From Escherichia coli (GTDB taxonomy: Bacteria; Pseudomonadota; Gammaproteobacteria; Enterobacterales; Enterobacteriaceae), in NCBI RefSeq assembly GCF_001677475.2, contig NZ_CP015229.1: a stretch of 64,000 nucleotides of DNA; one strand, given 5' to 3'. A program made the position numbers and the translations under genes. Below the pieces are notes generated by a model that was given only the letters and a program-made list of their open reading frames with translations, made no database searches and was not told the origin of the DNA. Position 1 is the stretch's first letter. Every line of letters begins with the position of its first letter. Positions 18,558 through 23,944 of this stretch are shown here, piece by piece.

Positions 18558-18911
18558 ATGTCATTTCTGTTACCCATCCAACTGTTCAAAATTCTTGCCG
18601 ATGAAACCCGTCTGGGCATCGTTTTACTGCTCAGCGAGCTGGGTGAGTTATGCGTCTGCGATCTCTGTACCGCCCTCGACCAGTCGCAGCCCAAGATATC
18701 CCGCCATCTGGCATTGCTGCGTGAAAGCGGGCTATTGCTGGACCGCAAGCAAGGTAAGTGGGTTCATTACCGCCTATCGCCGCATATTCCAGCATGGGCG
18801 GCGAAAATTATTGAGCAGGCCTGGCGATGTGAACAGGAAAAGGTTCAGGCGATTGTCCGCAACCTGGCCCGACAAAACTGTTCCGTAGACAGTAAGAACA
18901 TTTGCAGTTAA
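18558..18911 (+). CDS. arsR: Arsenical resistance operon repressor ArsR
   Basis: 117 aa; ELCVCDLC As(III)-binding motif in the HTH region. Confidence 0.95.
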   Translation: MSFLLPIQLFKILADETRLGIVLLLSELGELCVCDLCTALDQSQPKISRHLALLRESGLLLDRKQGKWVHYRLSPHIPAWAAKIIEQAWRCEQEKVQAIVRNLARQNCSVDSKNICS

Positions 18912-18964
18912 AAAATTAGCTAAACACATATGGATTTTCGCATGTGTTTTATCCGGGAGGCATT

Positions 18965-20254
18965 ATGTTACTGGCAGGCGCTATCTTTGTCCTGACCATT
19001 GTATTGGTTATCTGGCAGCCGAAAGGTTTAGGCATCGGCTGGAGTGCAACGCTCGGCGCAGTACTGGCGTTAGTTACGGGCGTGGTACATCCGGGTGATA
19101 TTCCGGTGGTGTGGAATATCGTCTGGAACGCGACGGCGGCGTTTATTGCCGTTATTATCATCAGCCTGCTGCTGGATGAGTCCGGCTTTTTTGAATGGGC
19201 AGCGCTGCACGTCTCACGCTGGGGCAATGGACGCGGTCGCTTGCTGTTCACCTGGATTGTCCTGCTCGGTGCTGCCGTTGCAGCTCTGTTTGCCAATGAT
19301 GGTGCGGCGCTGATTTTAACGCCAATTGTCATCGCCATGCTGCTGGCTTTAGGGTTCAGTAAAGGCACGACGCTGGCGTTCGTGATGGCGGCCGGATTCA
19401 TTGCCGATACCGCCAGCCTGCCGCTTATTGTCTCCAACCTGGTGAATATCGTTTCCGCAGATTTCTTTGGCCTCGGCTTTCGCGAATACGCATCGGTGAT
19501 GGTGCCGGTGGATATCGCCGCGATTGTTGCCACGCTGGTGATGTTGCATCTCTATTTCCGCAAAGATATTCCGCAGAACTACGACATGGCGCTGCTGAAA
19601 TCTCCCGCAGAAGCGATTAAAGATCCTGCTACGTTCAAAACTGGCTGGGTTGTTTTACTGCTTCTGCTGGTGGGATTTTTCGTCCTGGAACCGCTCGGCA
19701 TTCCGGTCAGCGCCATTGCGGCAGTGGGCGCGTTGATATTATTTGTCGTCGCTAAACGCGGTCATGCGATTAATACGGGTAAGGTGCTACGCGGTGCACC
19801 CTGGCAGATTGTCATCTTCTCGCTCGGCATGTATCTGGTGGTTTATGGCCTGCGCAATGCCGGGTTAACGGAATATCTTTCTGGCGTACTCAACGTGCTG
19901 GCGGATAACGGCCTGTGGGCCGCGACGCTCGGCACCGGATTCCTCACCGCCTTCCTCTCTTCTATTATGAACAATATGCCGACGGTACTGGTTGGCGCGT
20001 TGTCCATTGATGGCAGCACGGCATCTGGCGTTATCAAAGAAGCGATGGTTTATGCCAACGTGATTGGCTGCGATTTGGGGCCGAAAATCACCCCAATTGG
20101 TAGCCTGGCTACGCTACTCTGGCTGCACGTTCTTTCGCAGAAGAATATGACTATCAGCTGGGGATATTACTTCCGTACAGGGATTATCATGACCCTGCCT
20201 GTGCTGTTTGTGACGCTGACTGCGCTGGCGCTACGTCTCTCTTTCACTTTGTAA
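18965..20254 (+). CDS. arsB: Arsenite efflux pump ArsB
   Basis: 429 aa from ATG ([11 protein letters not shown]...) with GGGAGG RBS; the ORF-track start at 18944 is a GTG. Confidence 0.95.
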
Positions 20255-20266
20255 TGAGATATTGAT

Positions 20267-20692
20267 ATGAGCAACATTACCATTTATCACAACCCGGCCT
20301 GCGGCACGTCGCGTAACACGCTGGAGATGATCCGCAACAGCGGCACAGAACCGACCATTGTCTATTATCTGGAAACCCCACCGACGCGTGATGAACTGGT
20401 CAAACTTATTGCCGATATGGGGATTTCCGTACGCGCGCTGCTGCGTAAAAACGTCGAGCCGTATGAGGAACTGGGCCTTGCAGAAGATAAATTTACTGAC
20501 GATCGGTTAATCGACTTTATGCTGCAACATCCTATCCTGATTAACCGTCCGATTGTGGTGACGCCGCTGGGAACTCGCCTGTGCCGCCCCTCGGAAGTGG
20601 TGCTGGAAATTCTGCCAGATGCGCAAAAAGGCGCGTTCACCAAGGAAGATGGCGAGAAAGTGGTTGATGAGGCGGGTAATCGCCTGAAATAG
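20267..20692 (+). CDS. arsC: Arsenate reductase ArsC (glutaredoxin-coupled)
   Basis: 141 aa; MSNITIYHNPACGTSRN with catalytic Cys. Confidence 0.95.
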   Translation: MSNITIYHNPACGTSRNTLEMIRNSGTEPTIVYYLETPPTRDELVKLIADMGISVRALLRKNVEPYEELGLAEDKFTDDRLIDFMLQHPILINRPIVVTPLGTRLCRPSEVVLEILPDAQKGAFTKEDGEKVVDEAGNRLK

Positions 20693-20712
20693 CTAAAGGG
20701 GGATATGCCCCC

Positions 20713-21033
20713 TTATTTGTTCTCCGCGGCTCCTTCGCCATTTGTTTTGCTATTTACGCAGCACTCCTCGCGTAAGAATTCAATTATCGCTTCCAGCATT
20801 GCGTATTGCGAAACACACATCAGCGTCCGACTCTCACGGTTTTGTTTGACCAGTCCTACCGATACCAGTGCTGATATATGGTGGCTGAGTGTGGAGCCAG
20901 GTATCCCAAGCTGCTTTTGCAACTCACCGACCGGCAACCCTTGTTCCCCAGCTTTGACAAGATGTTTAAATATGAACAAACGGGTCGGGTGACCTAGCTC
21001 TTTCAGCGCTTTAGCAACTTCTTCCAACTGCAT
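20713..21033 (-). CDS. ArsR/SmtB-family metalloregulator (second copy, non-K-12)
   Basis: 106 aa; winged-HTH core (LGHPTRLFIFKHL...PGSTLSHHISALVSVGLV); C-terminal vicinal Cys pair (REECCVN) rather than the ELCVC site. Confidence 0.8.
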   Translation of the reverse strand: MQLEEVAKALKELGHPTRLFIFKHLVKAGEQGLPVGELQKQLGIPGSTLSHHISALVSVGLVKQNRESRTLMCVSQYAMLEAIIEFLREECCVNSKTNGEGAAENK

Positions 21034-21140
21034 ATGACACCCCCTTTGTCTGGTTGATATTTCGATAATACCAGAAATATCTTGATCTGAATTTTATTTC
21101 GATTATTCTGGAAATATAGATTTATTCACTGAGGTTACGT

Positions 21141-22142
21141 ATGAGTAGTTGGCTTGCGATGCTGCAAGATGCCGCAGAGATGTTTGTGTTTCTCGCCGTC
21201 GAGCTTTCTTTGCTGTTTATAGTGATTAGTGCCGGTGTCAGCCTGATAAGACAAAAGGTGCCAGACCATAAAATCCAGCAGATGATGGGGGCCAGAAAAG
21301 GGAGAGGCTATCTCCTGGCTGCTCTGTTGGGAGCCGTTACCCCGTTCTGTAGTTGCTCGACAATCCCCATGTTACGTGGATTGTTATCAGCGAAAGCCGG
21401 GTTTGGTCCGACTCTCACTTTTTTATTTGTTTCCCCATTACTTAATCCCATTATCGTCGGGTTAATGTGGGTGACCTTTGGCTGGAAAGTTACCTTGTTG
21501 TACGCGATTATCGCCGCCGGCGTCTCCGTACTTGCCAGTATTATCCTGGATTCTCTGGGATTTGAACGTCATATCATTGCCAGTAAAAGCTCATCAGCAA
21601 ATTGTTGTGCTCAAGCCAAAACTTCGCCGGGGACGACATATACGCCAATAAAAGTGAGTTGCTGTAGTCCAGCGGCTAAAGCCATTGAGAAACCCGTAGT
21701 TACCTGTTGCAGTACCAAAGCTGTGGTAAGTATTAATCCCATAAAACTAGCCACCAAAGATGCGTTGCAACAGTTTAAAGATGTACTGCCATATCTTTTG
21801 TTGGGGGTATTAATAGGCTCTTTTATTTATGGCTTTATTCCCTCAGAGTGGATTGCCGCTCATGCAGGGGCAGATAATCCCTTCGCCATCCCATTGAGCG
21901 CCGTTGTCGGTATTCCGCTGTATATCCGGGCAGAGGCGGTTATCCCTCTGGCATCTGTTCTGATGACAAAAGGAATGGGTCTGGGAGCATTAATGGCATT
22001 AATCATCGGCAGTGCCGGAGCAAGCCTGACGGAAGTGATATTACTTAAATCAATGTTCAGAATGCCGATGATAGCTGCATTCCTGACGGTTATCTTAGGT
22101 ATGGCTATCTTGATGGGCTATTTGACTCAAATGCTATTTTAA
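21141..22142 (+). CDS. arsP: ArsP-like permease (putative organoarsenical efflux; DUF318 family)
   Basis: 333 aa polytopic membrane protein with TPFCSCSTIP motif (the ArsP signature as recalled); central loop with three Cys-Cys dyads. Confidence 0.65.
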   Translation: MSSWLAMLQDAAEMFVFLAVELSLLFIVISAGVSLIRQKVPDHKIQQMMGARKGRGYLLAALLGAVTPFCSCSTIPMLRGLLSAKAGFGPTLTFLFVSPLLNPIIVGLMWVTFGWKVTLLYAIIAAGVSVLASIILDSLGFERHIIASKSSSANCCAQAKTSPGTTYTPIKVSCCSPAAKAIEKPVVTCCSTKAVVSINPIKLATKDALQQFKDVLPYLLLGVLIGSFIYGFIPSEWIAAHAGADNPFAIPLSAVVGIPLYIRAEAVIPLASVLMTKGMGLGALMALIIGSAGASLTEVILLKSMFRMPMIAAFLTVILGMAILMGYLTQMLF

Positions 22143-22720
22143 ATAGATGCCAGCAGTAAACTATAAGGAGCATTGTGAGTGCCTTATCCTTCTGAGTAGA
22201 AAATCATAGATAGGATAATCCTTAAAAAGCACAAATAACTTAACTAATGCTTTGAGAATGATGACGGATCCATCAGTAAGTCATCAATCGACAATCACCA
22301 CGCAATCATGCTTCTCTTACATTTTATCGGAGAAGCAATGTCTCTTTGTCTCAGTGCTATCCCCCCTTTTAAAGGGCAGATTTCAGTCGCCAATACAACA
22401 CATTTTTAAATACACTTTAACCTGGTTCATTATTACACATCTAAAACATCACAAAAATATCACTTTACACACTATCGGAGAACATCATAACTTTTTAAAA
22501 TGAGCGCTTTTTGATAGTTATTAACGTATTCTTTTACGATACTATCACTGCCCTTTTTTATACACAAATATTACCGGGTGGAGATAAAAGGGAAGTCAAA
22601 GGTAATTATATCAGGAAGATATGACGCATTATATTTATTGTGTGTAGAAGAAAATCCATTCCTGTTCTAATTATCCAATTTAAAAATCCTAGCATAAACA
22701 GATGATGAATAAGGAATGTT

Positions 22721-23944
22721 ATGTCAATTGACTTTACCCCAGGTATAATAAATATTTATCACGGCGATATTTATAACTGCACAACAAATACCGATAATGC
22801 TAAAACGCCAGACACACCGAAGTGGCCTTGCGATAATTGGGAAGAACAACAACCCATTAATTCCACATTCTCTGGAGAAGGATATACCTCTGATCAATAT
22901 GATTTAGCGCAACACCAACTTCAACAAATTTATGCGTGCCGCACGAACACCACATATACAAATGCAGACTACTCCAAAGTTGTGGCTCAACTTGTAAGTC
23001 TTATTACTAACATTGAAACGATAAGTTCGACACCACTTACGCGGCAGGCACAGGGACTACTTAATCAAATTAATAACATTAGATACGAAAAGAACAAAAG
23101 TGCTGAATGTCGAATCATTGTTGTCGCTAATCCTAAACCCGACAAGGCAATCATAACTAAAATTAGCGTAGAAGAGGGAATCCCCATAACATTCAGTGTC
23201 CAAACCATGTTTTCAGATACTAATTTTATTGCTGAACAACGAGCTGACTTACCAACTAATATAAAAGATATTCAAAGCCTGTATCAAAAAATGACGAAGT
23301 TATATATTGCGCACAGTGAAAATAAAAACAGGATGAAAGTCTTTGCCGGAACCAACTTTATTGATTTCAATATGACAGGACAGAACCTGTCCGGGTTCGT
23401 TCTAACCTTGTCAAGGTTTTATTTCGAAGATCTACTTAATATAAATTTCACTGACGCAAATTTAGGTGACACTATTTTTTCACATAAAGAACACCCTACC
23501 CCCAAATTATATAAAGATGGACAATATCTTGACAAACAAATCGAAGGTTTATTTTCAACATTATTAACCATTAATGACAACTTTTTACGAGCAAAAGCGG
23601 AAATTGCTTCGACAATAATTAAATTTTTAGAGACCAGGATAACCAATCTTTCATACAACGACATATTAAAATATCAGCAAGAATTCAAAAAAGAATGTTA
23701 TAAGCAAGTTAAAGCCTTTACGACACTCTCTCGATACAATAAAATTCAAACATGGGCAGAAATGTCTGAATATCAATTCGAAGTATTTCAATACGAGACG
23801 CTTAACCCAAAAAAAATGTCACACACGCCTTATTTAAAGAGGCCACTTCCTAATGAAAAAGATATAAATTATGGGGTGGAAATAGAAATACCATCTGGCA
23901 AAAGAATTCGCTTATCAAATCATTATCAGAATATAATACCATAA
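22721..23944 (+). CDS. yhiS: YhiS-like protein, intact (407 aa), function unknown
   Basis: AT-rich ORF with AAGGA RBS at the K-12 yhiS position; no IS interruption. Confidence 0.7.

Follow-up and report, generated by a model that had tools for sequence, protein, structure and literature searches.

What do three pairs of adjacent cysteines do in the hydrophilic middle of a membrane permease? The question is raised by an ArsP-family gene at positions 21141..22142 (plus strand) of a 64,000-nucleotide stretch of Escherichia coli contig NZ_CP015229.1 (RefSeq assembly GCF_001677475.2), which is called the window below. The open reading frame (ORF) encodes 333 amino acids plus stop, and between its hydrophobic blocks lies a loop for which an earlier note, made from the DNA letters, had proposed a role in substrate capture or sensing. 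Because the protein belongs to the ArsP family, the loop is hydrophilic and lies between the two domains, its vicinal cysteine (CC) dyads are retained by selection and the genomic context is arsenical, we infer that capture of soft metalloids is the best reading. The loop is in our judgement likely to be a functional soft-metalloid-binding element; that it acts more specifically as a multi-dithiol capture-and-relay arm for arsenicals is given a probability of about 0.5 from the sequence comparisons presented here.

Eight cysteines are present in the permease. Two of them (Cys70 and Cys72) lie in the motif TPFCSCS (residues 67-73; 21339..21359, plus strand), and the other six make up the dyads Cys155-Cys156 (21603..21608, codons TGT TGT), Cys174-Cys175 (21660..21665, TGC TGT) and Cys189-Cys190 (21705..21710, TGT TGC), with none elsewhere in the protein. 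All three dyads fall within the central linker between the two structural repeats (residues 139-199; 21555..21737, plus strand), which is hydrophilic, rich in Ala, Ser, Thr, Pro and Lys, predicted to be disordered and probably cytoplasmic (see below). The occurrence of three vicinal cysteine pairs in an ArsP-like permease, as described in the earlier note, was confirmed by the ORF translation together with the PF03773 match, and the hydrophilic segment between hydrophobic blocks was borne out by the Kyte-Doolittle profile (15-residue mean of about -0.4 to +0.7 at residues 143-213, as compared with 1.3-2.6 in the flanking blocks). The peptide quoted there is also present, but the quoted string begins at Ser151 while the start coordinate given for it, 21603, is that of Cys155, an offset of four residues. 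Shuffling of the 61-residue loop with its six cysteines (200,000 shuffles) gave a probability of about 6e-4 for three CC dyads, and chance is an unlikely source of the dyads given this value and the excess of CC over shuffles in homologous loops.

Assignment of the permease to the ArsP family (transporter classification 2.A.119) was based on a full-length match to the family hidden Markov model above the gathering threshold (Pfam PF03773, ArsP_1; residues 9-330, 180.3 bits relative to a cut-off of 32.3, E 6.2e-53). The TPFCSCS motif, in the first half of the protein, is the conserved C(S/T)C motif of the family, with every residue at least 90% conserved among 90 family members; C(S/T)C is universal in ArsP, and the 'tPF' prefix marks ArsP cluster 2 (Yang et al., PMC4435449). 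Family members consist of two four-segment halves with a hydrophilic loop of variable size between them (PMC7176098), and the same layout was found here, the N- and C-terminal halves being homologous (hhalign probability 97.5%, E 6.9e-12, 110 columns) with TPFCSCS of the first half paired with IPLYIRA of the second. The methylarsenite/roxarsone(III) efflux permease ArsP of Campylobacter jejuni shares the Pfam family, the C(S/T)C motif, the association with ars genes and the 4+4 layout of hydrophobic segments with the window permease. The C. jejuni protein is said to have 315 residues, and hence a much shorter linker, and just its two motif cysteines have reportedly been tested. A search seeded with the AT-rich homologue P0128 returned no Campylobacter protein.

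A rival view concerns the substrate: the permease could be a general exporter of thiophilic metals resembling the SO_0444 Cu/Zn efflux family, and its loop could bind Cu(I), Zn, Cd or Hg/organomercury. The best NCBIfam matches were indeed the SO_0444 Cu/Zn efflux equivalog (NF033936) and the SaoE equivalog (NF040736), which have the same Pfam family and CSC motif (USC in selenoprotein variants), motifs that Haft ties to heavy metals; in addition, central loops rich in CxC or His occur in some family members (HHCNGHEHNHEHCACGHE, for instance), and one homologue with four dyads lies amid PadR, CDF and Metal_resist genes. However, both scores were far under the curated cut-offs (109.7 bits relative to 300 and 87.6 bits relative to 325, respectively), by which both equivalogs were ruled out, and the clade of the query was found within ars loci in Escherichia, Salmonella, Citrobacter, Buttiauxella, six Aeromonas species, Craterilacuibacter and Crenobacter as well as on plasmids. 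Among solved structures, moreover, the adjacent regulator is closest to AfArsR, an As(III) sensor with which its CC pair aligns (see below). We regard a different soft metal as quite unlikely for the window permease. No SAO-locus genes were seen among the window ORFs near the permease.

Conservation of the loop was examined in two samples. The first consisted of 118 close homologues (Escherichia, Salmonella, Citrobacter, a Proteus plasmid and Aeromonas) with 96 distinct loops of 63-111 residues, the identity of which to the query was 24-68%, as compared with 86-99% in the membrane core. At least one CC dyad was present in 96/96 loops and at least two in 92/96, the mean of 2.61 CC per loop corresponding to a five-fold enrichment over the 0.51 expected when each loop was shuffled; 72% of the loop cysteines were in dyads, commonly in the context S/A/N-CC-S/A/T/P. 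The second sample, 120 further proteins of the TPFCSCS clade (Photobacterium, Shewanella, Vibrio, Yersinia and others) obtained from the P0128-seeded search, had loop cysteines throughout (120/120) and CC in 89 of the 120. Short loops of 36-40 residues (the P0305-P0410 set; Photobacterium, Shewanella and others) contained a compact CC-x3-C or C-x3-5-C cluster, which may represent the ancestral state from which the multi-dyad loops expanded. Seven loop dyads were counted in a metagenomic relative, and the loops of Craterilacuibacter and Crenobacter were made up of tandem 12-residue modules (PVEPKASCCxPK) with 8, 4 and 3 dyads in three related genomes (L026, L022 and L027). In Craterilacuibacter sp. 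RT1T (L026, 6470-6688) the loop is encoded by a 36-nucleotide tandem repeat (6.1 copies, 85% matches), whereas no DNA tandem repeat was found beneath the loop of the window permease.

A further account is that the loop is a neutral low-complexity linker and the CC dyads are by-products of repeat slippage and composition. The hypervariable, A/S/T/P-rich character of the loop would fit, as would the tandem repeat in some lineages and the many family members that function with short or Cys-free linkers. On the other hand, CC was five-fold over shuffles and was found in every one of the 96 loops in spite of their low identity, the window loop has three dyads with different codons yet no repeat in its DNA, and cysteines were found in the loops of the entire second sample, so that we hold the neutral account to be highly improbable. 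As judged from these comparisons, the CC dyads are under selective retention while the remaining loop drifts.

Beyond the two samples, distant PF03773 representatives had loops of 34-143 residues that were CC-rich, CxC-rich, His-rich or Cys-free. The conservation that the earlier note had asked about was found for the Cys clusters, but their positions, the loop length and the loop sequence were extremely variable, and in these alignments the conserved thing is the presence of the clusters, not where they stand. The same note had held that a loop absent or variable in functional homologues would speak against its proposal, which was observed in part, about one third of the distant representatives having no loop Cys. 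Because length and sequence are so variable and this third is Cys-free, the loop is best described, on the alignments, as an accessory, tunable and modular element and not as a fixed motif. A hydrophilic insertion of about 100 residues between transmembrane segments 4 and 5 of some ArsP homologues was described previously, its cysteines not being remarked on (Castillo and Saier 2010, PMC2963123).

On which side of the membrane the dyads lie was approached through a predicted structure. An AlphaFold2 model of the permease, built from a 90-sequence alignment, had a mean predicted local distance difference test score (pLDDT) of 88.4 and a predicted template modelling score of 0.84, with the core above 90. 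Loop residues from about 150 to 198 had pLDDT values of 51-58 and no secondary structure, and for this reason the central loop is predicted to be intrinsically disordered. The predicted helices of the first half were a long transmembrane (TM) helix at 2-39, a pair (52-66 and 71-83) broken exactly at TPFC, a discontinuous pair (88-100 and 103-113) and a TM helix at 115-138, and the second half repeated the same four elements (200-232; 249-260 and 264-276; 281-293 and 296-302; 308-332). Over the 90 homologues, Lys plus Arg (K+R) averaged 6.0 in the central loop, 4.5 in the one that follows TM1 and 1.7 in the one that precedes TM8; the averages were 1.0 for the N-terminus, 0.6 for the loop following TM5 (net charge -1.3) and 0.1 for the C-terminus. 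The two homologous halves have an opposite charge bias, and this bias and the predicted helix order would fit an inverted repeat with a putative re-entrant hairpin and a discontinuous helix in each half. The model was structurally similar to several solved proteins belonging to the ion-transporter (IT) superfamily (ArsB, DASS, AbgT group), in which the inter-repeat linker of ArsB is cytoplasmic; a solved structure for the ArsP family itself was not found.

Because of the charge statistics and the fold match to hairpin-containing inverted-repeat IT transporters, the CC loop would lie between the repeats and in the cytoplasm, where its thiols would be reduced. By the same modelling, TPFCSCS would form the tip of a cytoplasm-facing re-entrant hairpin and supply transport-site thiols, at the position taken by the substrate-binding SNT/Asn motifs in DASS and ArsB. 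A simple eight-TM protein with its N-terminus outside would instead have a periplasmic loop, with dyads that form disulfides or bind metal outside to block its re-entry, and this arrangement follows if the membrane is crossed by all eight hydrophobic segments and loop 1 (L1), which is K/R-rich, is inside. It would, however, put L1, L5 and L7 on one side, although L5 is acidic (0.6 K/R, net -1.3) and both L1 (4.5) and L7 (1.7) are rich in K/R, and it agrees neither with homologous halves of opposite charge bias nor with a fold in which the inter-repeat linker is cytoplasmic. The plain eight-TM topology was rejected for its conflict with the charge distribution over the 90 homologues, and a periplasmic loop has, in our estimate, very little chance of being correct. 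No recognisable fused soluble domains were found in longer homologues, 10 of which matched ArsP_1 alone.

The resemblance to ArsB and DASS transporters has its limits. Sequence similarity of the permease to them was not detected, and it is much smaller (333 residues as compared with 428-541), with most of the scaffold helices missing. ArsB binds As(OH)3 via hydrogen bonds to Asn/Ser, whereas the ArsP family would present thiols (CSC) at the equivalent hairpin position of the model. Published bioinformatics assigns ArsP to the TOG superfamily (PMC7176098), with which the predicted ArsB/DASS-like fold is in conflict.

The genomic context of the permease is arsenical. In the window, arsR (18558-18911; of the CVCDLC type, an As(III) site), arsB (18944-20254) and arsC (20267-20692; ArsC Pfam match) are successive plus-strand ORFs (18558..20692), followed by a divergent gene for a 106-residue ArsR/SmtB regulator on the minus strand and then by the permease. 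The arsRBC assignment agrees with how the syntenic E. coli locus is annotated in RefSeq, and arsRBC beside the regulator-permease module is an inorganic-arsenic operon; the position of the pair directly downstream of it is the adjacency to an ars operon that characterises ArsP sensu stricto. Of 5426 complete E. coli genomes, 2225 had the same arrangement. The highest nucleotide identity that window positions 20600-22300 reached with any complete E. coli genome was 98.3%, so that the window represents an allele or Escherichia lineage that has diverged somewhat. On the 3' side of the permease, a 407-residue ORF (22721-23944, plus strand) had no Pfam match, and its syntenic counterpart in E. coli E300010 carries the annotation of a frameshifted hypothetical protein.

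In other genera the neighbours of the pair vary. It adjoins arsRDABC-arsH on a transposon-rich island in Salmonella and Citrobacter, and arsRBC plus arsH in Buttiauxella; in six Aeromonas species it heads a divergent arsR-arsR-arsD-arsA...arsC operon, and on the IncI plasmid pM105 (L032, 31653-32690) the divergent operon is arsR-arsH-(sigma-70-family factor gene)-arsD-arsA. Three Neisseriales genomes (Craterilacuibacter, Crenobacter) have the permease inside arsR-arsC-arsD-arsA-permease-acr3, while in A. veronii, E. coli E69 and Limnobaculum the regulator-permease pair stands alone. In most genera sampled the module lies beside arsRBC, arsRDABC-arsH or arsDA, and the regulator-permease pair moves as a unit.

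The frequent presence of arsD and arsA bears on the possibility that the loop serves the chaperone ArsD or the ATPase ArsA for docking and hand-off, which would make the permease an ATP-driven pump. An ArsA-ArsP pump of this kind, with co-evolution of ArsA and ArsP, was suggested by Castillo and Saier (PMC2963123), and it fits the arsD-arsA genes located immediately upstream of the permease and on the same strand in the three Neisseriales genomes, as well as those in the divergent operons of the Aeromonas species and pM105. Yet neither arsA nor arsD lies close to the module in the window or in many other loci (A. veronii, E. coli E69, Limnobaculum), all of which keep 2-3 dyads nonetheless, and the Neisseriales operon also encodes Acr3, an alternative partner for ArsA. 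A docking function is considered very unlikely.

The divergent partner gene (20713..21033, minus strand; Pfam HTH_20/HTH_5, NCBIfam metalloregulator) provided a further indication of the substrate. Its product has Cys73 and a C-terminal dyad, Cys91-Cys92 (EECCVN, nucleotides 20758-20763), and its closest solved relative was AfArsR (PDB 6J05, E 3.5e-10). In the alignment of '...FLREECCVNSK' with '...YLTENCCHGTR' of 6J05, Cys91-Cys92 coincide exactly with Cys95-Cys96, the As(III) ligands of AfArsR. No third liganding Cys was present downstream, that is, after residue 92, whereas the As(III)-type ArsRs that occur in these loci in Aeromonas and Neisseriales have three (Cys91, Cys92 and Cys99), the third being seven residues past the first Cys of the dyad. 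A two-Cys arrangement has been reported for SpArsR, which is selective for methylarsenite, MAs(III) (PMC13236881), and the partner ArsR shows this SpArsR-type pattern in its sequence. In the loci of Escherichia, Salmonella, Citrobacter, Buttiauxella, Limnobaculum and Aeromonas the partner ArsR was 83-98% identical, as compared with 59% for a metagenomic relative, and 'ECC' and Cys73 were invariant in every copy examined; across genera the regulator was much more conserved than the permease loop. The window encodes two types of ArsR, CVCDLC (18558-18911) and CC (20713-21033).

The regulator and permease genes are separated by 107 bp, in which a repeat search located two 37-nucleotide direct repeats (21044..21117). 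The first contains the palindrome GATATTTC-N10-GAAATATC and the second is an imperfect copy; they are probably ArsR operator sites. Promoter-like hexamers at 21034-21061 and 21054-21083 overlap the repeats, their count being not above the shuffle expectation.

Taken as a capture-and-relay arm, the loop would work as follows. A disordered cytoplasmic linker (residues 139-199) would run from one inverted structural repeat of the ArsP-family exporter to the other, and each of its vicinal dithiols would chelate one thiophilic trivalent arsenical. The chief candidates are methylarsenite and aromatic As(III) species, for which two sulfur ligands are needed, and As(III) or Sb(III) would be possible given a third ligand. 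Taken from glutathione by the dyads, the arsenical would be handed over by the flexible arm, through thiol ligand exchange, to Cys70/Cys72 in TPFCSCS, from where it would be exported. The loop would then be a built-in metallochaperone or antenna, tunable in copy number, and an avidity or antenna function is favoured over a precise switch because dyad number and spacing vary freely.

Vicinal dithiols are also redox-active, and metalloid binding or disulfide formation at the dyads might instead switch the transporter or its stability, so that the loop would be a regulatory or redox gate; a passive variant would be a membrane-tethered arsenical sponge. Conserved CC, disorder and a probable cytoplasmic position fit these ideas equally well. 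A range of 1 to 8 dyads with free spacing and tandem expansion, however, is easier to reconcile with dosage or avidity than with a defined allosteric switch, the adjacent ArsR already provides for transcriptional sensing, and the few thiols per transporter would make a negligible sink. We consider a gate or sponge unlikely. Of the two roles named in the earlier note, capture is thus supported, in the conditional sense given above, and sensing is less likely because a dedicated ArsR-type sensor is encoded next door and the number of dyads ranges from 1 to 8.

Several points weigh against an arsenical capture-and-relay arm. The one third of distant PF03773 representatives that have no loop Cys indicate that the family as such does not require the loop, and C. 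jejuni ArsP (315 residues) is said to depend on just two conserved cysteines. A homologue with four dyads in a Syntrophorhabdaceae metagenome-assembled genome (L007, 4494-6107) is paired with a PadR regulator and has CDF, TauE and Metal_resist genes around it in place of ars genes, and because of these neighbours the CC loops of some lineages may be for other soft metals. If the conserved Cys73 of the partner ArsR served as a third ligand, as it could, the case for organoarsenicals would be weaker, and a description or experimental test of a Cys-rich ArsP loop was not found in literature searches.

Comparable arms are known from other metal-handling proteins. The flexible C-terminal CC tail of MerA delivers metal and is a proposed analogue of the permease loop, and the His-/Cys-rich loops between TM4 and TM5 of CDF and between TM3 and TM4 of ZIP transporters are disordered, variable in length and near the transport site, and capture and deliver metal. 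Other PF03773 members have His-rich or CxC-rich central loops at the same position, while the permease differs from the CDF/ZIP loops and the MerA tail in ligand chemistry (vicinal dithiols) and presumed substrate (arsenicals). In ArsD, the adjacent pairs Cys12-13, 112-113 and 119-120 are each an independent arsenic site, with one site formed by Cys12-13-18 (PMC12607644), and adjacent Cys pairs also bind As(III)/MAs(III) in the ArsR sensors AfArsR (Cys95-96), CgArsR and SpArsR (PMC13236881); in such ArsD and ArsR sites the metalloid is transferred by ligand exchange. The CC-x3-C cluster of the short-loop homologues resembles the CC-x4-C site of ArsD, and the ArsD pairs that feed ArsA are proposed as an analogue of the permease arm. 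ArsD and the ArsRs are, however, folded soluble proteins, whereas the permease dyads are part of a disordered linker of variable copy number inside a transporter, and their metal binding would be by analogy. One tentative synthesis, which we think possible but doubtful, is that ArsP permeases are minimal elevators of the ArsB/DASS fold that move arsenicals by a covalent thiol relay, the poly-dithiol arm acting as an ArsD-like chaperone that strips organoarsenicals from glutathione for the Cys-Ser-Cys at the hairpin tip, and the number of dyads being set by repeat expansion under arsenical selection (for example, through roxarsone given to poultry, a setting in which plasmid-borne copies are common).

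About 1000 plasmid records (PLSDB) contained a homologue, 639 of them conjugative, and several of the plasmid records displayed (PLSDB hits H16-H55) came from chicken, duck or turkey. The plasmid-borne copies in poultry may be linked to organoarsenical feed additives. Because the module is common in E. coli genomes and is present on conjugative plasmids, several of them from poultry, the substrate range of the permease bears on co-selection by arsenical feed additives. To our knowledge, no exporter other than ArsP is dedicated to trivalent organoarsenicals; a dyad array built into an arsenical permease appears to be undescribed. If the reading presented here is true, a selected and expandable array of vicinal dithiols in a cytoplasmic linker would add a new functional element to the transporter class, in effect a chaperone fused into the pump, and would contrast with ArsB, where As(OH)3 is recognised by hydrogen bonds alone.

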